Of a DNA stretch of 64,000 nucleotides, positions 3,343 through 64,000 are shown piece by piece (within the stretch, counting starts at the first letter, position 1; every line of letters starts with the position of its first letter). The notes below the pieces were generated by a model that was not told where the DNA came from, ran no database searches, and was given only the letters and a program-made list of their open reading frames with translations. The position numbers were made by a program, and so were the translations under genes. Origin of the DNA: Candidatus Woesearchaeota archaeon (GTDB lineage Archaea; Nanobdellota; Nanobdellia; Pacearchaeales; GW2011-AR1); contig CAZHCL010000001.1 in the NCBI GenBank assembly GCA_964530955.1, positions 4,630 through 68,629 on the forward strand, in the 5' to 3' direction.

Positions 3343-3633
3343 TCACCTTTTGAATTTTATTATTATCCCTACAAGAAGGACTATTATTGAAACTATGAGG
3401 AAAGAAAGGGTCTTGCTTAAACCAGTATATTCTATAAAGAAGAAAATTAGTGAGAACGCGAAGAATATTACTGCTGCTACAATTAGAAGCATTCCTGTAA
3501 TGTCTTTTATTATTTTTCTTATTGTTCTTTTTATTGCTAGATTAAATGATTCAAAAACATCATCTCTTGCATTTCTAAGAACTTTTCCCAATCCAACTTT
3601 AAGCAAATCTCCAAGATAATCAGTAAATCCCAT
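3343..3633 (-). CDS. small two-TM membrane protein (YqjE/holin-X-like)
   Basis: Two hydrophobic helices; adjacent to a YqjD-like gene as in yqjD-yqjE pairs. Confidence 0.4.
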   Translation of the reverse strand: MGFTDYLGDLLKVGLGKVLRNARDDVFESFNLAIKRTIRKIIKDITGMLLIVAAVIFFAFSLIFFFIEYTGLSKTLSFLIVSIIVLLVGIIIKFKR

Positions 3634-3709
3634 GTAATGTATAGGGGCTTCGCGTATAAAAACATATCCTGAGATTTTTCATCTTAATTGAGTAGTTAAT
3701 AAGATTAGT

Positions 3710-4954
3710 TTACTCATATCTCAAAGCATCAACTGGCTTGAGCTTCGAAGCACGGTAAGCTGGCCAGGCTCCTGAAATCATTCCAATTATTACTGAAAAA
3801 GCTAGGGAGAAGAAAAGCAATCCGAAGCTTACTGCGGTTGTCAGTCCACCTCTTGTTCCTGGAAGCCCTAAACTTGAGCCCAGAACAGAAGGCAATATGG
3901 TAGATATTCCCGCGCCTATTATTATGCCTATTAATCCTCCGACGAACCCCAGCATTCCAGAGTTTATTAAAAAGATAAACATTATATCTTTGTTCTTTGC
4001 TCCTATCGCCTTCATAATTCCTATGTCTTTTGTTTTTTCTAGAACAGAAGTAAACATGGTATTAGCTACACCTATGCCTCCAACAAGAAGAGAAACTCCT
4101 GCAATCATTCCCAGAAATAAGGTAATTGCAGAGGTTACTTGGCTAAATCTTTGTTGCAAAGCTAATGGAGAAGTTACTGAAAAATCTATTTTGTCTGACC
4201 TTGTATGCCTTTCATTTGTCAATGCATCAGTAATCTGATTAGTTGTATCATTGATATAATTAACATCCGAAACTTTAACCTCAATTGATGAATATTCGTT
4301 GCTTTTGATGTCGATTGTATCGCCCAATACATTTCTTGCATCCTTCTCTGACATGTATATTACATTATCAGAGCCTCCAAGGCCACTTGTGGGACTTAAA
4401 ATTCCGATTATCCTGTAGGGACGGTTATTTACCATAAGCATAGAGCCTACAGCTAAAGGACTGTTGAAAACACTGTTGGCAATTCGGTCTCCGATAATTA
4501 TTGAGCCAGACTCTCCATTGCTGAAAACTCTTCCAGATGCAATGGTCGTAGTAACAAAGTCTGAAAAAACTCCTGTATCGATGCCATCAACACTTGTTGA
4601 CGCATTTTGTGCATTGTAAGTTATTGTTGCCCTCCCGCTCACTATCGGATCTATGCTCTTTATTCCAGGAACAAGTTTAAGTGCGTCTGTATCTCTTGTT
4701 GACAAGGGAACAGCATTTAATGAACTTCCGCCCCCTCCCCCGAAGGCTCTTGCCGAACCAGCATTTATTGTAATAATATCCTGCCCTAAACCACCTATCT
4801 GTGACTGGACGCTCTGCTGCAAACCTTGTCCTATAGAAATTATTGCTACAACAGCTGCAACTCCAATAACTATTCCAATGATAGTAAGCCAGCTTCTCAA
4901 TTTACTATGAAGAAGCATATTAAGAGAAAGCTTTAGAGTTTTACTTGTTTTCAT
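3710..4954 (-). CDS. ABC transporter permease, MacB/FtsX family
   Basis: N-terminal TM, large periplasmic-type domain, C-terminal FtsX 3-TM bundle (GIMKAIGAKNKDIMFIFL...). Confidence 0.85.
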   Translation of the reverse strand: MKTSKTLKLSLNMLLHSKLRSWLTIIGIVIGVAAVVAIISIGQGLQQSVQSQIGGLGQDIITINAGSARAFGGGGGSSLNAVPLSTRDTDALKLVPGIKSIDPIVSGRATITYNAQNASTSVDGIDTGVFSDFVTTTIASGRVFSNGESGSIIIGDRIANSVFNSPLAVGSMLMVNNRPYRIIGILSPTSGLGGSDNVIYMSEKDARNVLGDTIDIKSNEYSSIEVKVSDVNYINDTTNQITDALTNERHTRSDKIDFSVTSPLALQQRFSQVTSAITLFLGMIAGVSLLVGGIGVANTMFTSVLEKTKDIGIMKAIGAKNKDIMFIFLINSGMLGFVGGLIGIIIGAGISTILPSVLGSSLGLPGTRGGLTTAVSFGLLFFSLAFSVIIGMISGAWPAYRASKLKPVDALRYE

Positions 4955-5939
4955 GTTTAGCGCCCTTCATCTTTCTTCTAACTACCATAACACCTACTCC
5001 TATTACTGCGCCTAGAATAATATACATTAATGTTGAAAAGTTAAAAGTGGATGAGCTTGAACTTGTTGATGTCCTTGAGAATGTTCCTGTTCCTCCGATT
5101 CTTGTGGAATTGAATGGTACTCCCATATCAATAGATACATTTTCTTCTTCAACAGTTCTAACATTTGCAGTATCTGTATAAGCAACATCCATTTTAATTG
5201 TTTTTACTCCATTCTGAGGTAGAATCTGGAATGTCACGGAAGTAAAATCTCCAGTATTAAGGTTTCCTATTATTGATGATTTAGGACCGCTAATTCTCAC
5301 GCCTTCTTGATCAGGAATGCTAACTATTACTGCACTGGCAGGATTTTCTCCAGTATTTGCTATTGCAAATGAAGTTCCCTGAGAGCTGGACTGCTGGGTG
5401 ATTAGGCTAAAGTCTGTTCTTGTTTTTGCTATTTCTATAGGTATCTGATATTGTGAATTTAGAACTGAATTATTATTAGTAGTCATCTGAAGATTTAATA
5501 TGCTTTGACCTTCAGGAGCATTATCTGCAACCTTTACCCTGAATTTCATTATTATCTGATTTGCCTCTATCTGAGTATCTCCCAGTTGCCTTTGATATTT
5601 ATAGGCGTTGTTTGTACCTGCAATCAATCCAAAATCTTTTGTTGGAGAATCAACATTCTCAAAAACTTTATCCGTCAAAAGATTAAATTCAACATTTGGA
5701 GCATCATTTTGTCCTGTGTTCTGAACTTTTACCCACAGATCAAACCATTGACCCGGATTTACTGGATAAGGTTCATACTGCAATGCTTCTACAACCAATT
5801 GAGGATAAGTCGTTGAAAAACCAGTATCTACCGAAAAGTTTGTCTGATTAGATGTTGCTGCCTGTGTCTGTGGAATAATTGAAAATAAACAAGTTACTAA
5901 AATTGCCGAAGCTAAAATAAACAAAAACTGCTTTTTCAT
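4941..5939 (-). CDS. secreted beta-rich (CARDB/S-layer-like) protein with C-terminal TM anchor
   Basis: Signal peptide [14 protein letters not shown]..., C-terminal TM plus basic tail; sandwiched between the ABC permease and ATPase. Confidence 0.5.
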   Translation of the reverse strand: MKKQFLFILASAILVTCLFSIIPQTQAATSNQTNFSVDTGFSTTYPQLVVEALQYEPYPVNPGQWFDLWVKVQNTGQNDAPNVEFNLLTDKVFENVDSPTKDFGLIAGTNNAYKYQRQLGDTQIEANQIIMKFRVKVADNAPEGQSILNLQMTTNNNSVLNSQYQIPIEIAKTRTDFSLITQQSSSQGTSFAIANTGENPASAVIVSIPDQEGVRISGPKSSIIGNLNTGDFTSVTFQILPQNGVKTIKMDVAYTDTANVRTVEEENVSIDMGVPFNSTRIGGTGTFSRTSTSSSSSTFNFSTLMYIILGAVIGVGVMVVRRKMKGAKHENK

Positions 5940-10657: not shown

Positions 10658-11578
10658 TTAGGGGAATGTTCTGTAACGAGTGTTTATTAGTATATATTCT
10701 ATTAAAAATAAAAGAAGAGCAATAAGAAGAAGGTACTTCGAAACATCAATTGGAACGACTGCCTGTTTCTGATTCAATGCATTTTGGAAAGCTTGCGCAA
10801 GTTTATCTGAGTTTTCTGCGGTAGAATAATTACCTCCAGTGTTATAGGCGAGATACTGCAGAGACTGCTCATCAACTTGAGACAAACCATATGAAGTCTG
10901 GCCTCCCTGTCTTGTACCTATCGATATTGTGTTAATAATCGCATGATATCTATTCGCGTAATTAGCTGCGTATTCAAGAGAACCAGTGTTTATCTGCCCA
11001 TCACTTAAAATTATCAATGCTTTTGTGTCTTCATTAACTAATAAGTTTACTCCAGTCACGACTGGCTCATATATATCTGTTCCTCCAACGTCAGAAATGT
11101 TGATATTTATTATTGCTGCCCTAAGTAGGCCCTTATCATCAGTAACAGTCTGTTCTATTACCGAGCTGCCCGCGAAAGATAATATCCCTACCTTAGTACC
11201 GAATGGCAAAGAATCAAGAAAAGACAGAGCAGTGTTTTTCGCTGCGTCTAATCTAGTTGGATAAAAATCATTTGCCCCCATGCTTTGAGAGGAATCTATT
11301 GCTATCACAAAAGAAAATTTGCTGACTGTTTTTGTAATTACCATTGTTGTACCGGCCAGAGCAAGTACGGAAAGAACAACTATTATGCACGTTAGAGCTA
11401 ATATGGTGACGTTTTTTGAATATAAATCTAGGCCTGTAATTCTTGAGAGCGCATTGAAATTAGCAAATTTTAAAGTCCTTTTTTTTGTAATCTTTATTGA
11501 AATAAAATGTATTAGAATTATTATTGGAATAAAAAGAAGCAAGGCTAGATAAGCTGGTTGGGCGAATATTAAGTTCAT
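10658..11578 (-). CDS. von Willebrand factor A domain membrane protein (BatA-like)
   Basis: N-terminal TMs; VWA MIDAS-type motif VIAIDSSQSM; GILSFAGSS. Confidence 0.75.
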   Translation of the reverse strand: MNLIFAQPAYLALLLFIPIIILIHFISIKITKKRTLKFANFNALSRITGLDLYSKNVTILALTCIIVVLSVLALAGTTMVITKTVSKFSFVIAIDSSQSMGANDFYPTRLDAAKNTALSFLDSLPFGTKVGILSFAGSSVIEQTVTDDKGLLRAAIININISDVGGTDIYEPVVTGVNLLVNEDTKALIILSDGQINTGSLEYAANYANRYHAIINTISIGTRQGGQTSYGLSQVDEQSLQYLAYNTGGNYSTAENSDKLAQAFQNALNQKQAVVPIDVSKYLLLIALLLFLIEYILINTRYRTFP

Positions 11579-26205: not shown

Positions 26206-26306
26206 TGCGCGATACGAGAATCGAACTCGTGTATATTGGTTTTTTCCTCTCAGAATTAACTGAGGTGCGATGGAAACCAATCATTCTGCCATTAAATTAA
26301 TCGCGC
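26206..26306 (-). tRNA. tRNA-Gly (anticodon UCC) with a roughly 30-nt intron at the canonical 37/38 position
   Basis: Manual fold on the minus strand: acceptor GCGCGAT/ATCGCGC, D-stem ATTT/GAAT, anticodon stem ATTGG/CCAAT, loop TTTCCA|intron|A, T-arm ACGAG-TTCGATT-CTCGT. Central TTTCC/GGAAA helix plus AAA bulge is consistent with a relaxed bulge-helix-bulge. 101 nt in total. Confidence 0.6.
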
Positions 26307-59115: not shown

Positions 59116-59171
59116 TCTTTCGTGCTTCAAGCTATATAGCAATATTTATATGATTTTTAGAGAGATAGCAA

Positions 59172-59182
59172 TATTTAAATAA
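59172..59182 (+). promoter_or_regulatory. putative TATA box (TTTAAATAA) about 24-30 bp upstream of tRNA-Asn
   Basis: 59174-59182; tRNA 5' end at 59205. Confidence 0.4.
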
Positions 59183-59204: not shown

Positions 59205-59354
59205 GTCCCCTTAGCTCAGACCTTCCGAGACGCTAATTAACGTTAGGATGGGAGCAATCGGTAGAGCATCTGACTGTTAGAGATTAACAGCAGCTTTCCG
59301 TTGGAAGGCCCTATAGAAATCAGAGGGTCGCTGGTTCGAGTCCAGCAGGGGACG
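59205..59354 (+). tRNA. tRNA-Asn (anticodon GUU) interrupted by two introns: about 38 nt in the D-loop (about 59221-59258) and about 39 nt at 37/38 (about 59280-59318)
   Basis: Exons reassemble into a perfect cloverleaf: acceptor GTCCCCT/AGGGGAC, D-arm GCTC-AGA^CGGTA-GAGC, anticodon arm TCTGA-CTGTTA^A-TCAGA, variable loop GGGTC, T-arm GCTGG-TTCGAGT-CCAGC, discriminator G. Confidence 0.7.
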
Positions 59355-59355
59355 T

Positions 59356-59571
59356 TTATTTTTTAAGAAGAATATAACCTAAAATTAATAATATAACCAG
59401 TGCAACAATTATCCAGAAAATGGTTTTACTTTTCTTTTCTCTCTTTTTTCTTTCGTCAGCCTCTGCATAACCTTGTTCTATTGCATCTTTTCTATCCGGA
59501 TCTAATCCTGCCTGTTTCTGACCTTCATATCTGAACTGCATAACTCCGCCAGTCTGAACTTGTTCTGCCAT
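59356..59571 (-). CDS. small tail-anchored membrane protein
   Basis: Charged N-terminus plus C-terminal TM. Confidence 0.35.
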   Translation of the reverse strand: MAEQVQTGGVMQFRYEGQKQAGLDPDRKDAIEQGYAEADERKKREKKSKTIFWIIVALVILLILGYILLKK

Positions 59572-60078: not shown

Positions 60079-61161
60079 ATGAAAAATAATGACCAACAAA
60101 AGACCGTAGTAATAGGTCTTTCTGGAGGAGTTGATTCGAGCGTGGCTGCTCTTCTACTCAAAAGAAAAGGTTATAGAGTTATAGGCGCTTTCATGAAAAA
60201 CTTTTCAGACACCAAAAACCCATATACTGGTGAATGCTCATATCTTGAAGACAAAAGAATGGCTCAAAGAGTGGCTGCTCTTTTGGGAATTAGGTTTGTT
60301 GTTTTTGATTTTGAAAAAGTCTATAAAAAAGAAGTTATAGAACCAATGTTTAAAGCATATGCTAAAGGATTAACTCCTAATCCTGATATTTTATGTAATA
60401 CTATTGTGAAATTTCCTCTATTCTGGAAAGAAGCTCATAAATTAGGAGCTAATTATATTGCGATGGGACATTATGCAAGAATAATAAAGAAGAAGGGGTA
60501 TGAACTTTTTTCTGGCAAAGATAAAACGAAGGACCAGTCATATTTTCTTTCTGACTTGAGCCAAAGCGACCTTGAGCATACTTTATTTCCTCTTGGAAAT
60601 TTAAGCAAGAAAGAAGTAAGAAAGATAGCTAAGAAAAATAATCTTCCGAATTGGAACAAACACGGAACTGTGGGTATCTGTTTTGTCGGAAAGGTGCACA
60701 TGCAATCATTTCTCAAAAATAGAATAAAAGCAAGGGAAGGAATAGTAAAAGACCCAGAGGGAAATATTATAGGAAAGCATAATGGAATTCAGTTTTACAC
60801 TATTGGACAGAAGGTAGGAGAGCATATAGGTATAGAAATTAAAAAGCCTAAAGAATATTCCCAAAAAAGATTTTACGTTGCAGATAAAATAAAACCAAAC
60901 GTACTCATTGTTGCCCCCGAAAACCATCCTACTCTGAAAAAAAAGAAAGTGGAGATAAAAAAAATCCATATCATTAATCCAAAAGAAAAGATTCCGAATA
61001 ATGGCCTAAAAGCAAGGATAAGACACCTTGGTCAGCTACATTCTGGAAAACTGATAAAGAATCAATTTATTTTTGAAAGAGAAGTTGAGTCGATTGCTCC
61101 CGGTCAGTATATTGTAATTTACAATAAAGATAAAGTTATTGCTAGTGGTGAGATAAAGTAA
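60079..61161 (+). CDS. mnmA: tRNA-specific 2-thiouridylase MnmA
   Basis: PP-loop GLSGGVDSS, Cys motifs CNT...GICF. Confidence 0.85.
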   Translation: MKNNDQQKTVVIGLSGGVDSSVAALLLKRKGYRVIGAFMKNFSDTKNPYTGECSYLEDKRMAQRVAALLGIRFVVFDFEKVYKKEVIEPMFKAYAKGLTPNPDILCNTIVKFPLFWKEAHKLGANYIAMGHYARIIKKKGYELFSGKDKTKDQSYFLSDLSQSDLEHTLFPLGNLSKKEVRKIAKKNNLPNWNKHGTVGICFVGKVHMQSFLKNRIKAREGIVKDPEGNIIGKHNGIQFYTIGQKVGEHIGIEIKKPKEYSQKRFYVADKIKPNVLIVAPENHPTLKKKKVEIKKIHIINPKEKIPNNGLKARIRHLGQLHSGKLIKNQFIFEREVESIAPGQYIVIYNKDKVIASGEIK

Positions 61162-62467: not shown

Positions 62468-63553
62468 TTATTTTAGTTTCTTCCTTTCAAAATCTCTTCT
62501 GGAAGTCCCGCCAAAACGCCTTGTTCTTTCTGAGAAGTTTCTGATTGCTTTTCTAAGTTCATCTGCTCCGAATTCTGGAAAATAAACATCAGCAAAGTAA
62601 AGCTCTGCGTAAGTTGCCTGATAAGGCATTGCTCCGCTTGTTCTCATTTCTCCTGAAGTCCTTATTATCAAATCTGGGTCGGGAATATCTGCTGAGTCAA
62701 GATAATTTTTGAATTTTTCCTCGTCTATCTTTCTAACTCCTGATTTCAGCATCTTGTTAACTGCCCTTATTATTTCATCTCTTCCCCCATAATCAAGCAT
62801 TAGTTGAACATTTAGATCGGAGTATTCTTTTGTTTCTTCTTCGAGCTCATGCAGTTCTTTGATAAGATTTTTTGGAAGTCTATCTTTTCTTCCAATATGT
62901 CTGAATCTAATTCTATGCTTATGTGCTTCTTCCTTTAATTTGTCAATTTTCTTCAAAACGAGATTGAAAATTGCTTTAATTTCAGAACTATCTCTCTTCC
63001 AGTTTTCAGTTGAAAAACCCCAGAGTGAAAGATATTTTACCCCCAATCTTTTTGCTTCGAGAAAAATTTCCATAATTCTTTCGTCACTCGCTGAAGTATA
63101 ATGCCCGAAACTTGCATTCAATCCTCTTTCTCTTGCCCATCTTCTGTTTCCATCGGGAATAATCACAACATGTACTGGGACACTCTTTTTGCTATCGATA
63201 ACTAAAGACTTTCCAAGATTCAAAAGGCTTTTTGCCTTATCAATTACAAAGCTGTCTTCCTTTATTATATCAAATGCCGAATATCTCGCTCTTGGATTTT
63301 TCCAGAAATAATTAATTTCCTCAACGTTTGAAAAGCCAGGACTTTCCTTAAGCCAAGAAATAACATCTTCTAGCTGTTCTTTCATCCCCTGCGCAACAAC
63401 AAGAACAGAACCATCTTTTCTGTTCATTACATATCCTCTTAAATTCAGTGAATCAGCATAATTTTTTATAATGCGTCTGAAGTTTACCCCTTGAACTCTT
63501 CCTAATAACTCTATTTCTACTTCGCTCTCTATCTTTTTATAATTATTTTCCAT
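62468..63553 (-). CDS. uppS: acylphosphatase-like domain fused to undecaprenyl/cis-prenyl diphosphate synthase (UppS)
   Basis: N-terminal GRVQGVNFRR and GYVMNRKDGSV acylphosphatase motifs. C-terminal IIPDGNRRWA, LSLWGFSTENW and RTSGE...S cis-IPTase motifs. Start set at MENNYKK because the upstream convergent DHH gene stops at 63543. Confidence 0.8.
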   Translation of the reverse strand: MENNYKKIESEVEIELLGRVQGVNFRRIIKNYADSLNLRGYVMNRKDGSVLVVAQGMKEQLEDVISWLKESPGFSNVEEINYFWKNPRARYSAFDIIKEDSFVIDKAKSLLNLGKSLVIDSKKSVPVHVVIIPDGNRRWARERGLNASFGHYTSASDERIMEIFLEAKRLGVKYLSLWGFSTENWKRDSSEIKAIFNLVLKKIDKLKEEAHKHRIRFRHIGRKDRLPKNLIKELHELEEETKEYSDLNVQLMLDYGGRDEIIRAVNKMLKSGVRKIDEEKFKNYLDSADIPDPDLIIRTSGEMRTSGAMPYQATYAELYFADVYFPEFGADELRKAIRNFSERTRRFGGTSRRDFERKKLK

Positions 63554-64000
63554 TTTTTTCAGCTTCCTTTTCAAAGGCCTCCCTAAATTTTGCAAGATCA
63601 TCTGTCCTTATTCTTGCTCCCGCCGCGTCATCATGTCCTCCGCCTGTTGCATTTGAAAAATTTCCAATTATATTAGATAGAATTAATTTAACATTCTTTC
63701 CTCTTAGTGAAATATTAGAAATTCCTCCTTTAATAAAAGCAGCAGCAATATACTTTTCTGGATAAAGGAAACATAATTCATTGGCTATCTCTGCGCTTAT
63801 ACTCAAATCACCAGTATAATCAAAGAATACTACTTTTCCGGATACCTCTTCCTTTGCTTTTTGAACAAGATAGTCATATTTCTTTTTTATTTCCGAATAT
63901 CTGTTTCTAAAACTTGAGTTTGAATCAATCTCTTGGAAAATGTCTGCTGGGCCTTTGCTATTGATTAAGAAATTTTGCAGCTGAACTACATGGGTTATTG
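63543..64000 (-). CDS. DHH-family phosphoesterase, C-terminal DHHA1 domain (gene continues beyond the window)
   Basis: Open frame to the window edge; GGGHDDAAGA DHHA1 motif near the C-terminus. Confidence 0.6.
   Translation of the reverse strand, partial: ITHVVQLQNFLINSKGPADIFQEIDSNSSFRNRYSEIKKKYDYLVQKAKEEVSGKVVFFDYTGDLSISAEIANELCFLYPEKYIAAAFIKGGISNISLRGKNVKLILSNIIGNFSNATGGGHDDAAGARIRTDDLAKFREAFEKEAEKNGK

Follow-up and report, generated by a model that had tools for sequence, protein, structure and literature searches.

The presence of two introns in a single archaeal tRNA, one of them lying in the D-loop, has been described for the pre-tRNA-Glu(UUC) of M. kandleri. In the assays performed with this precursor, a D-loop intron at 20b/21 (HBh' motif) and a second intron at 37/38 are both removed by the splicing endonuclease EndA, the D-loop site being the harder substrate (Kaneta et al. 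2018, PMC5829648). In Aeropyrum pernix, the BHB intron of the pre-tRNA-Thr2(UGU) D-loop is removed in vivo, in cells, as well as in vitro by recombinant EndA acting alone, and it is hardly cut by an EndA of narrow specificity (Hirata et al. 2011, PMC3241643). According to later papers that cite the original reports, the tRNAs of Thermoproteales carry up to three BHB introns each, at many non-canonical positions, with a rapid turnover between related species (Sugahara 2008 and Fujishima 2010, cited in PMC4090602 and PMC4033280). Disrupted tRNA genes have already been reported in DPANN archaea as well (PMC5829648, PMC3239211). The gene studied here, a tRNA-Asn(GUU) interrupted twice in a DPANN archaeon, is therefore another example of a known phenomenon, since M. 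kandleri, A. pernix, ARMAN-2 and Thermoproteales already provide multi-intron tRNAs with introns in the D-loop. However, non-canonical tRNA introns are usually described as random-seeming and fast-changing, whereas here the same site of the same gene is occupied in a very wide archaeal radiation.

Like the pre-tRNA-Glu of M. kandleri, the tRNA-Asn has two introns, a relaxed HBh' one in the D-loop and one at 37/38. It differs from it by the D-loop site (15/16 instead of 20b/21), by the amino acid (Asn instead of Glu) and by the 37/38 motif, which is relaxed too. Moreover, the host is a DPANN archaeon, mesophilic and low in GC, and not a hyperthermophilic euryarchaeon, and a single alpha-type EndA with the DPANN insert is expected in place of the loop-less (alpha-beta)2 enzyme of M. 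kandleri. The pre-tRNA-Thr2(UGU) of A. pernix shares a BHB intron in the D-loop, but has a single intron with a full BHB motif and is processed by a crenarchaeal (alpha-beta)2 EndA with a Crenarchaea-specific loop; conservation of its intron across phyla has not been reported, unlike that of the D-loop intron type described here. The closest systems by taxonomy are those of ARMAN-2, Micrarchaeota and other DPANN, which belong to the same superphylum and combine many non-canonical or multiple introns, relaxed motifs and EndAs with lineage-specific inserts (Fujishima et al. 2011, PMC3239211; PMC5829648). However, the examples given in the main texts of these papers concern T-loop introns (53/54, 59/60) and a three-unit epsilon2 enzyme. 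In these two main texts, we came across no account of an intron at 15/16 of tRNA-Asn, nor of one conserved over many lineages. Finally, multiple BHB introns at non-canonical sites and intron turnover between relatives are common to our case and, as far as the citing papers relate, to Thermoproteales. In the latter, again from these secondary accounts, introns resembling one another turn up in several tRNA species, a pattern interpreted as transposition, whereas here one intron keeps to a single site of a single tRNA gene throughout a broad radiation, diverging together with it, and the turnover observed consists mostly of loss.

The gene lies in a 64-kb stretch of DNA that we analysed as a whole (hereafter, the window). 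The host is a tiny archaeon of the DPANN group, of Woesearchaeota/Pacearchaeota type. A preliminary description had proposed a tRNA-Asn(GUU) at 59205-59354, with a perfect 73-nt cloverleaf interrupted by introns of about 38 and 39 nt. We confirmed this gene, whose three exons give a 73-nt body once both introns are removed. After deletion of 59220-59257 (38 nt) and 59280-59318 (39 nt), ARAGORN calls the remaining 73 nt tRNA-Asn(gtt); the acceptor stem is 7/7 paired, the D-stem has 4 bp, and the anticodon and T-stems have 5 bp each. The spliced product also keeps U8, A14, G18G19, U33, the T-loop TTCGAGT and the discriminator G. The elements of the locus are as follows:

59174..59181, + strand: putative archaeal TATA box TTTAAATA, probably a promoter element judging from its sequence, with its centre some 27 nt upstream of tRNA position 1
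59205..59219, + strand: exon 1, tRNA positions 1-15, with the acceptor 5' strand GTCCCCT, U8 A9, the D-stem 5' strand GCTC, A14 and G15
59220..59257, + strand: intron 1, 38 nt, ACCTTCCGAGACGCTAATTAACGTTAGGATGGGAGCAA, between tRNA positions 15/16 in the D-loop; precisely missing from the syntenic orthologues L007 and L182
59258..59279, + strand: exon 2, tRNA positions 16-37, with the 3' part of the D-loop, the D-stem 3' strand GAGC, the anticodon stem 5' strand TCTGA and the loop CTGTTA with the anticodon GTT
59280..59318, + strand: intron 2, 39 nt, GAGATTAACAGCAGCTTTCCGTTGGAAGGCCCTATAGAA, at the canonical position 37/38; missing from the intronless orthologues L182 and L206
59319..59354, + strand: exon 3, tRNA positions 38-73, with the anticodon stem 3' strand, the variable loop, the T-arm GCTGG-TTCGAGT-CCAGC, the acceptor 3' strand AGGGGAC and the discriminator G
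59355..59364, + strand: T-rich tract TTTATTTTTT directly 3' of the gene, a likely archaeal transcription terminator

CCA is not encoded at the 3' end of exon 3. The three exons are contiguous and colinear on one strand within 150 nt, an organization distinct from the split or permuted tRNA genes of the N. equitans, Caldivirga or Thermofilum type. The locus is not an assembly artefact, since its sequence is identical in independent ENA and JGI assemblies (L001, L003) and the adjacent gene is present in six contigs (ENA, JGI, Logan). The precursor folds better than dinucleotide shuffles of its own sequence (z = -3.55). The upstream block ATAGCAA..TTTAAATAACA is kept at equal distance in an alignment with L007, and a similar box is found in L182 and L206; the comparisons with these three orthologues show conservation of the T-tract as well as of the TATA-like box.

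The exon/intron boundaries are fixed by orthologues. The syntenic L182 lacks both introns, and its uninterrupted tRNA-Asn matches the product expected from splicing at 73/73 positions, so that every junction is set. The syntenic L007 lacks exactly the 38 nt of intron 1 and has a 28-nt intron in place of intron 2. Both comparisons set at 15/16 the D-loop intron that had been recognized as non-canonical, and the orthologue boundaries agree with the cloverleaf on the size of the two introns and on the 37/38 position of the second. L206 is intronless and 68/73 identical. Gene order around the tRNA is aIF2b-DUF424-KH-tRNA-MnmA in L182 and L206, and the tRNA-Asn of the window occupies this conserved syntenic slot where relatives keep a tRNA-Asn. 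On sequence alone, the junctions of intron 1 are unique and those of intron 2 are ambiguous by 1 nt (36/37 or 37/38); the BHB geometry picks 37/38.

Four intron states were observed in close relatives: both introns, the 37/38 intron only, one large intron, expanded and shifted to 35/36, and none. All four occur within one family-level group, in syntenic orthologues with nearly identical exons, and this set constitutes a clean natural series for the loss, expansion and shift of protein-spliced introns. The key orthologues L182, L206, L179, L149 and L215 were obtained in a metagenome scan with GGTAGAGCATCTGACTGTTA, a 20-mer common to many bacterial tRNA-Asn genes; among the matches listed (at least 120), most were intronless bacterial genes. 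Exon 1 is unchanged in L007, L013, L010 and L182, and exon 2 differs from that of L007 only at position 16 (T here, C in L007). The T-stem of L013 (GGAGG/CCTCC) has two compensatory double changes relative to the window gene, and alongside this comparison 5/38 positions of intron 1 differ and none of the flanking exons 1 and 2. The exons are therefore under selection, as indicated by the compensatory changes and by an intron 1 that diverges beside unchanged exons. Intron 2 is almost unchanged in L013 and L179.

Both junctions consist of a 3-nt bulge, a 4-bp helix and a second 3-nt bulge, with the cuts predicted between bulge nucleotides 2 and 3. Neither intron has the strict hBHBh' form with both outer helices: intron 1 is HBh' and intron 2 is hBH, two accepted relaxed members of the BHB family that need a broad-specificity enzyme (PMC3239211, PMC6379350). 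Deleting one intron leaves the BHB motif of the other intact. A bare scan for the BHB geometry returned dozens of chance 4-bp/3-nt configurations inside the 150 nt; geometry alone is thus not selective and carries weight only in combination with the cloverleaf and the orthologues. The motif of intron 1 is composed of the following elements, the arrow marking the predicted cut:

59214..59217 (GCTC, D-stem 5' strand) with 59252-59255 (GAGC), + strand: BHB-1 central helix, 4/4 Watson-Crick
59218..59220, + strand: BHB-1 5' bulge AG↓A, predicted cut after 59219
59221..59251, + strand: intron 1 hairpin, with helix h' formed by 59221-59226 (CCTTCC) and 59246-59251 (GGATGG), and an inner stem GACG/CGUU in the MFE fold
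59256..59258, + strand: BHB-1 3' bulge AA↓T, predicted cut after 59257

The intronic GAGC at 59252-59255 copies the 3' strand of the D-stem, and the central helix appears in the unconstrained MFE fold. BHB-1 is of the relaxed HBh' type, since the exon-side helix beyond the 3' bulge is missing (h = 0). Among 53 homologues of intron 1 (see later in the text), the first base is A in 48 and the last two are AA in 47. Helix h' contains one U-U mismatch in the window and two in L013. This helix covaries: over 53 distinct sequences, 89.6% of the cells are paired, and 53 cells are changed on both sides, versus 12.8 +/- 3.4 in shuffles (0/500 as high) and ∼20 in slid registers, in a test that covers helix h' only, the BHB-1 central helix being fixed by the search pattern.

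The corresponding elements of intron 2 are the following:

59274..59277 (C32-U35, CTGT) with 59313-59316 (ATAG), + strand: BHB-2 central helix (H = 4, h = 5, h' = 2)
59278-59280 (TA↓G) and 59317-59319 (AA↓A), + strand: BHB-2 bulges, with the anticodon stem (59269-59273 with 59320-59324) as exon-side helix
59294-59308, + strand: intron 2 internal hairpin, CUUUCC-GUU-GGAAGG

The BHB-2 design (AA↓A bulge and central helix) recurs in 35 distinct homologues, in which covariation is limited to one-sided changes, one strand being the anticodon loop. The intron-side helix has only 2 bp and is weak in the homologues too, which gives the relaxed hBH form. Forcing both BHB motifs yields -49.6 versus -57.4 kcal/mol for the MFE, from which BHB-2 is absent; the splicing-competent fold of intron 2 is predicted to lie 7.8 kcal/mol above the MFE, owing to an alternative pairing of C32-A37 with an intronic UAACAG. 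The CTTCCG and CTTTCCG elements and small hairpins previously noticed in the introns proved to be parts of the same structures, each element forming the 5' side of the stem in a hairpin (for intron 1, CCUUCC/GGAUGG; for intron 2, CUUUCC-GUU-GGAAGG). We looked for a kinship of introns 1 and 2 through this CTTCCG-like element and found nothing beyond a shared pyrimidine-rich stem strand.

These results indicate that the locus is, with high probability, a functional DPANN tRNA-Asn(GUU) gene, expressed as a precursor of ∼150 nt with two protein-spliced BHB introns. In such a precursor, the D-stem 5' strand GCUC would pair with the intronic decoy GAGC and not with the exonic GAGC. The decoy 4-bp helix, flanked by the 3-nt bulges AG↓A and AA↓U, would stack on the intron hairpin and offer an HBh' motif to EndA. 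At intron 2, the anticodon stem, the AA↓A bulge and the 4-bp helix C32-U35/AUAG would form an hBH (bulge-helix-loop) motif. EndA would then make four cuts, and an RtcB-type ligase would join the three exons. After ligation, the D-stem 5' strand would be able to re-pair with the exonic GAGC, and trimming of the ends and addition of CCA would give the 73-nt body plus CCA.

The need for a relaxed-specificity endonuclease, suggested beforehand from the non-canonical intron site, is supported by the motifs, both of which are relaxed: relaxed or ectopic motifs are cut efficiently only by broad-specificity EndAs (PMC3241643, PMC5829648, PMC6379350). A search of the 64-kb window with an M. jannaschii bait sequence, able to find EndA elsewhere, returned no host EndA. 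In L114 and L052, a single alpha-type EndA (PF02778 + PF01974) adjoins a tRNA-Asn with a D-loop intron; homologues of this EndA are labelled Aenigmarchaeota or Nanoarchaeota. An EndA of this type contains a 6-residue Lys-rich insert that is missing in the M. jannaschii enzyme, and the insert region aligns gap-free to the broad-specificity alpha subunit of N. equitans. The insert is kept in all the DPANN EndA homologues aligned (8/8), and we infer that the host enzyme belongs to the same type. Within DPANN, an association of more disrupted tRNA genes with alpha4-type EndAs that bear an extra loop has been described (PMC5829648), and a broad specificity of insert-bearing DPANN alpha-type EndAs has been proposed in the literature from this kind of correlation. 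As both motifs of the tRNA-Asn are relaxed and the EndA of the lineage is apparently a single alpha-type enzyme with a small insert, the proposal that the insert broadens specificity becomes directly testable with a defined substrate.

Intron 1 is homologous across DPANN. An intron at 15/16 was found in the tRNA-Asn of at least 53 MAGs (53 distinct genes and sequences), which are labelled as Woesearchaeota/Pacearchaeota type and also as Aenigmatarchaeota, Iainarchaeum and Micrarchaeota. In this survey, tRNA identity was assigned by position-based parsing in place of ARAGORN, which gave many Asn genes with two introns a wrong label (Ser, Tyr, Thr or Ala). The survey pattern sees Asn-type D-arms only; a specificity of the 15/16 intron for tRNA-Asn, deduced from 53/53 validated matches, was withdrawn, no other tRNA in those loci having the required D-arm. 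Matches in MAGs of Hadarchaeota, Bathyarchaeota and Hyperthermus were rejected as chance matches in GC-rich coding DNA. The homologues share the intron ends (ACUUUUC...GGAGCAA) and the fold, the divergence of introns correlates with that of exons (Mantel r = 0.37, 0/2000 permutations), and the intron 1 of the window is a slightly degenerate copy of the consensus. Relatives with and without the intron are intermingled, whether near or distant, and such patchiness is better accounted for by repeated loss than by the same intron being gained repeatedly at the same site. As judged from these comparisons, intron 1 is very probably old in this radiation and transmitted along with its gene, and both introns have very probably been lost, precisely and repeatedly, in close relatives.

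A functional gene could also have gained intron 1 recently, by intron transposition or duplication, the intron-less relatives then representing the ancestral state. L007, the closest sampled relative by KH identity (75%), indeed lacks intron 1, the intron 3' end GAGCAA resembles the exonic GAGCAT and could suggest a local duplication, and a CTTCC-like stem strand is found in both introns; moreover, intron transposition is documented in Thermoproteales, at least as cited in PMC4090602. However, same-site introns with the same ends and fold in at least 53 MAGs of several DPANN groups, divergence that tracks the exons, the degenerate consensus copy in the window and a patchiness better explained by loss all speak against a recent gain, and we judge it very unlikely. 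An old intron 1 being preferred, a more far-reaching claim may be formulated: the 15/16 intron would be ancestral to the split of Woesearchaeota/Pacearchaeota, Aenigmatarchaeota, Iainarchaeota and Micrarchaeota, vertically inherited and kept by selection and not by inertia, possibly because holding G15 (the archaeosine site of archaeal tRNAs) in the BHB bulge, or delaying the folding of the D-arm, controls tRNA modification or maturation. We put forward this joint claim tentatively and consider it rather doubtful, as the same distribution may be due to transfer of the whole gene from one DPANN group to another, to MAGs with wrong labels or to neutral persistence. If true, an ancient and vertically inherited 15/16 intron would provide a molecular marker of a rare kind, relevant to the monophyly of DPANN, which is disputed.

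Less probable still is a decaying tRNA pseudogene, with inserts that are junk never removed and another gene that supplies tRNA-Asn. Such a view could invoke the failure of standard finders to call the locus, the h' mismatch in the window, a BHB-2 that is not part of the predicted MFE, the intronless orthologues of relatives and a gene inventory that covers the 64-kb window only. In this window, a structure-only scan of both strands (acceptor stem and T-arm both perfect, U8, spans of whatever length up to ∼280 nt) returned the four known tRNAs, the locus at 59205-59354 and one AT-rich false positive. The search for a separate intact tRNA-Asn, which the preliminary description had named as a possible refutation, thus gave none within the 64 kb, and the locus is the sole Asn-type gene there, in the conserved syntenic slot. 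Moreover, decay is hardly compatible with perfect exons (73/73 with a functional-looking intronless orthologue, compensatory changes in L013), with inserts located exactly where the BHB geometry sets the cuts, with an intron 1 conserved and covarying in 53 distinct sequences, or with a conserved promoter box and T-tract.

Finally, inserts that are not EndA substrates but self-splicing group I/II introns, a C/D-box guide RNA, a mobile-element remnant or retained expansions have a negligible probability: nothing positive speaks for them, whereas 38 and 39 nt are far too short for group I/II introns (∼200 nt or more with a conserved core for group I), Rfam gives no group I or group II match at the gathering score or at E <= 10, inspection of both introns revealed neither C (RUGAUGA) nor D (CUGA) boxes, the junctions have the 3-4-3 BHB geometry with symmetric cut positions, and the retention of 38 nt after G15 and before U16 would break up the D-loop/T-loop core, an established feature of tRNA structure. 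The sole snoRNA-like Rfam match at the locus is on the opposite strand (E = 8.7).

The unspliced locus is called neither by ARAGORN nor by Rfam at the gathering score. At a permissive threshold, the Rfam tRNA model matches positions 9-63 only (19.5 bits), so that a 40-nt insert is passed over and the 5' exon is left out. In intron mode, ARAGORN reports on the unspliced 150 nt a tRNA-Gly(tcc) with a 67-nt intron, which we rejected as spurious, and the singly spliced forms give mis-parsed Asn or Val calls. Genes of this kind thus escape both ARAGORN and the tRNA model of Rfam, and a tRNA can look absent from DPANN genomes as a result. Apparently, the standard archaeal tRNA finder copes with the tRNA-Asn of this lineage, since one is recorded for each of the 208 complete Nanobdellota genomes (preprint 10.64898/2026.05.13.725050). 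The window also contains an intron-bearing tRNA-Gly(UCC), at 26206-26306.

The 150-nt locus that the preliminary description had proposed as a tRNA-Asn(GUU) gene with two introns was borne out on the forward strand, and both inserts can be removed from it:

Window 59205-59219, 59258-59279 and 59319-59354 (+), the three exons of the tRNA-Asn(GUU) gene (59205-59354)
Window 59220-59257 (+), intron 1, 38 nt, at the D-loop site 15/16
Window 59280-59318 (+), intron 2, 39 nt, at site 37/38

The product left after removal of both inserts is 73 nt long (GTCCCCTTAGCTCAGTCGGTAGAGCATCTGACTGTTAATCAGAGGGTCGCTGGTTCGAGTCCAGCAGGGGACG), and ARAGORN identifies this spliced form as tRNA-Asn(gtt) with all stems perfect, in line with the perfect cloverleaf claimed for it. 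The unspliced gene is missed by ARAGORN and by Rfam at the gathering score; with a permissive cut-off, Rfam's tRNA model covers model positions 9-63 only (19.5 bits), passing over a 40-nt insert of the anticodon loop and leaving out the 5' exon, as expected for a gene interrupted in the D-loop. When both strands of the window were scanned for tRNA structure alone (perfect acceptor stem of 7 bp, perfect T-arm whose loop reads TTCRA, U8, span of at most ~280 nt), the matches were four known tRNAs, the tRNA-Asn locus, one AT-rich false positive and nothing else; no second Asn-type anticodon arm was found in the 64 kb. The precursor fold is more stable than dinucleotide shuffles (z = -3.55), and an assembly artefact is ruled out, since the identical locus sequence occurs in independent ENA and JGI assemblies. 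The gene does not encode CCA. A TTTAAATA box lies ~27 nt 5' of it and is kept in orthologues, and a T-tract follows directly 3'. Further 5', the 13-mer ATAGCAATATTTA is present twice, 29 nt apart (window 59136-59148 and 59165-59177, +), its second copy extending into the putative TATA box, so that a promoter-like element appears to be duplicated.

The junctions of intron 1 are unique on sequence alone. In the unconstrained minimum free energy (MFE) fold, G10-C13 (GCUC, the 5' strand of the D-stem) forms a helix with the GAGC at the intron's 3' end. A 3-nt bulge lies on either side of this helix (A14 G15|A and A A|U16), which continues on its intron side into CC.UCC/GGA.GG and an inner stem. 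In both bulges, the predicted cut separates nucleotides 2 and 3. Because the geometry check for a bulge-helix-bulge (BHB) found no exon-side helix beyond the 3' bulge, the motif is of the relaxed HBh' form. In this model, the intronic GAGC is a decoy for the true 3' strand of the D-stem (G22-C25); with intron 1 excised, the D-arm is predicted to fold normally. The junctions of intron 2 are ambiguous by one base from sequence, and BHB geometry picks 37/38. Its motif combines the anticodon stem with the bulge AA|A38 and a 4-bp helix of C32-U35 with AUAG; the intron-side helix is no longer than 2 bp, and a loop adjoining an internal hairpin (CUUUCC-GUU-GGAAGG) holds the 5' site. As modelled, it is a relaxed hBH, i.e. 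bulge-helix-loop, form. It is not the predicted ground state: with both motifs forced, the fold has -49.6 kcal/mol versus -57.4 for the MFE, because C32-A37 can pair instead with UAACAG inside intron 2. A CTTCCG-like element had been described in both introns; it is present as a pyrimidine-rich stem strand in each, and no sign of kinship between introns 1 and 2 was seen beyond this shared strand.

The window has a GC content of ~34%, and the genes flanking the tRNA encode aIF2-beta, a DUF424 protein, a KH/PNO1-type (KH) protein, a bacterial-type MnmA and deoxyhypusine synthase. Where KH-protein homologues bear a name, it is Nanoarchaeota, Pacearchaeota or Nanoarchaeia, which places the host among DPANN archaea of the Woesearchaeota/Pacearchaeota kind. 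Three further features of the window are as follows:

Window 60079-61161 (+), bacterial-type tRNA 2-thiouridylase (MnmA family, Pfam tRNA_Me_trans), adjoining the tRNA gene and syntenic in relatives
Window 62468-63601 (-), ORF; its counterpart in L012, a relative, combines the Pfam domains of acylphosphatase and undecaprenyl-diphosphate-synthase (Prenyltransf) in a single product
Window 26206-26306 (-), tRNA-Gly(UCC), intron of 30 nt at the canonical site 37/38 (Rfam 55.7 bits; missed by ARAGORN)

With the tRNA-Gly, whose intron motif has a central helix UUUC/GAAA and bulges CA|U and AA|A, two of the five tRNA genes in the window bear introns.

By following the gene order aIF2b-DUF424-KH-tRNA-MnmA, we reached the tRNA-Asn of relatives, and a metagenome scan added further loci.

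Intron states of tRNA-Asn in relatives (percentages, identity of the KH protein to that of the window)
L007/L008, 75%: D-loop uninterrupted (GCTCAG-C-CGGTAGAGC); 28-nt intron at 37/38
L012, 71%: intronless; stems diverged
L013, 70%: both introns; five positions differ in intron 1, the first base only in intron 2
L010, 67%: exons identical to the window; no D-loop intron; one ~190-nt intron, at 35/36 by its junctions
L182, metagenome scan, syntenic orthologue, 51%: intronless; 73 of 73 positions equal to the predicted spliced product
L179 and L149, metagenome scan: both introns
L215 and L247, metagenome scan: 37/38 intron only
L206, metagenome scan: intronless

The exons of L007/L008 differ from those of the window solely at position 16, and these loci, together with L182, fix the junctions of both introns, the one in the D-loop and the one at 37/38. 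In L013, the T-stem carries two compensatory double changes (GCTGG/CCAGC to GGAGG/CCTCC). The L010 gene (ENA ERZ27254767 k141_590129, 3529-3791, +) has its junctions inside the anticodon (CTGACTGT|GAACG...GGTCG|TAATCAGAG); since the 5' end of its intron resembles that of intron 2 of the window, it looks like an expanded 37/38 intron shifted by 2 nt. Directly 3' of the L182 gene, 4 nt apart, the final 25 nt of gene plus trailer (TTCGAGTCCAGCAGGGGACGTTCTA) recur as a tandem repeat (Ga0194131_10001122, ~11172-11230, +), which could be a small duplication or a scar left where integration or excision took place at the 3' end of the tRNA.

To define the distribution of the 15/16 intron, the pattern TAGCTCAG-N20-50-GAGC-NNNN-GGTAGAGC was scanned in species-representative genomes, giving at least 119 loci. 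At least 53 of these pass an independent tRNA test, all 53 with anticodon GTT, a uniformity that says nothing on 15/16 introns in other tRNAs, as the pattern sees only the Asn-type D-arm, found in no other tRNA of the listed loci. Among the 53 validated loci listed, a 37/38 intron (11-88 nt) is also present in 36 and absent from 17. Most of the 53 come from MAGs labelled Woesearchaeota, Pacearchaeota or Nanoarchaeota; other labels among the matches listed are Aenigmatarchaeota (L100, L122), Iainarchaeum (L121, L123) and Micrarchaeota (L031), and two loci sit in bins with bacterial labels. Most other listed loci match the pattern by chance within coding DNA of bacteria; three listed matches in non-DPANN archaea are chance matches too. 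The 15/16 introns among the matches listed measure 26-53 nt, typically starting with ACUUUUC and ending with GAAAGGGAGCAA. Their central helix is fixed by the search pattern and carries no evidential weight. Across 53 distinct sequences in a junction-anchored alignment, pairing in the helix beside the 5' bulge reaches 89.6%, with 53 cells changed on both sides versus 12.8 +/- 3.4 after shuffling (0/500) and ~20 whenever the register is slid. Divergences of intron and exon are correlated (Mantel r = 0.37, 0/2000 permutations), as expected for an intron inherited with its gene. Given this wide distribution, the absence of intron 1 from L007, L215, L010, L012, L182 and L206 is best read, from sequence comparison, as repeated precise loss; a recent gain in the window's lineage is less likely.

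BHB recognition is usually described as sequence-independent. Among the homologues listed, intron 1 starts with A in 48/53 and ends with AA in 47/53, and intron 2 ends with AA before A38 in most of 35 distinct homologues; these conserved bulge bases may reflect a preference of the DPANN enzyme. That enzyme, the splicing endonuclease EndA, was not found in the 64-kb window with an M. jannaschii EndA query, a meaningful negative since the same query matches EndA in other loci. In L114 and L052, a single alpha-type EndA (PF02778 and PF01974; 183 aa in L114) directly adjoins a tRNA-Asn with the D-loop intron. Between its catalytic Tyr and His, it carries a Lys-rich insert of 6 residues that is absent from the M. 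jannaschii alpha4 enzyme (1A79); with the N. equitans alpha subunit (3IEY_A), it aligns without gaps. Every homologue is a single-unit protein of ~175-220 aa under the label Aenigmarchaeota or Nanoarchaeota, and the insert is kept in 8/8 aligned. In DPANN, alpha4-type EndAs with a 'Nanoarchaea/ARMAN-2 specific loop' (L3) are associated with more disrupted tRNA genes (Kaneta et al., PMC5829648), and the Lys-rich insert would correspond to this loop. Splicing of both introns, and an enzyme performing it, we infer for the window's organism.

The gene belongs to an already known type, as tRNAs with several introns have been described from Crenarchaeota, N. equitans, M. kandleri, Korarchaeum and ARMAN-1/2 (PMC4033280). 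Experimental work on D-loop introns exists for A. pernix tRNA-Thr2, which a narrow-specificity EndA barely cuts (PMC3241643), and for M. kandleri tRNA-Glu (PMC5829648). The latter resembles the window gene in combining an HBh' D-loop intron with one at 37/38, but its D-loop site is 20b/21 instead of 15/16. The open-ended list of non-canonical sites in a review (20/21, 22/23, 25/26, 29/30, 30/31, 45/46, 53/54, 56/57, 59/60 'etc.', and 3/4; PMC4090602), which is not a primary catalogue, does not name 15/16, and our literature search, to which primary intron catalogues were out of reach, found no published description of a conserved 15/16 intron in DPANN tRNA-Asn. For its BHB intron models, tRNAscan-SE 2.0 used crenarchaeal/euryarchaeal and thaumarchaeal introns as training data (PMC8450103); nevertheless, it is reported to find all amino acids except Trp and Val across 208 complete Nanobdellota genomes (2026 preprint, 10.64898/2026.05.13.725050), so the tRNA-Asn of this lineage is detected by a standard tool. 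We consider the original observation confirmed, and its interpretation, as a lineage hallmark requiring a relaxed-specificity endonuclease, supported. The interest lies in the breadth of 15/16 intron conservation in DPANN tRNA-Asn and in the natural series that close relatives form by their intron states.

Some loci depart from the common pattern. An additional T-loop intron accompanies the D-loop intron in the Woesearchaeota MAGs L020 and L126 (~30 nt) and in L114 (~190 nt; tRNA-Asn at ~4132-4400, +), and the anticodon arm of L020 may also be interrupted in an unusual way. Two short contigs in bacterial bins, L080 (labelled Omnitrophota) and L083 (labelled Chthoniobacterales), carry a DPANN-type two-intron tRNA-Asn; intron 1 of L083 is identical to that of the Woesearchaeota MAG L045, and both labels are probably binning errors in public MAGs. 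To our knowledge, EndA is not expected in bacteria. A contig labelled Candidatus Nomurabacteria (L104, MNVN01000004.1) is bacterial by its 23S and 5S rRNA genes (Rfam), and between them lies a tRNA-like element (~5100-5236, -) whose CCA end is encoded, whose odd anticodon arm measures 6 bp/6 nt and whose D-loop is interrupted at the same site by an insert of 53 nt (TAGCTCAG-53 nt ending GGAGCAG-GAGGTAGAGC).
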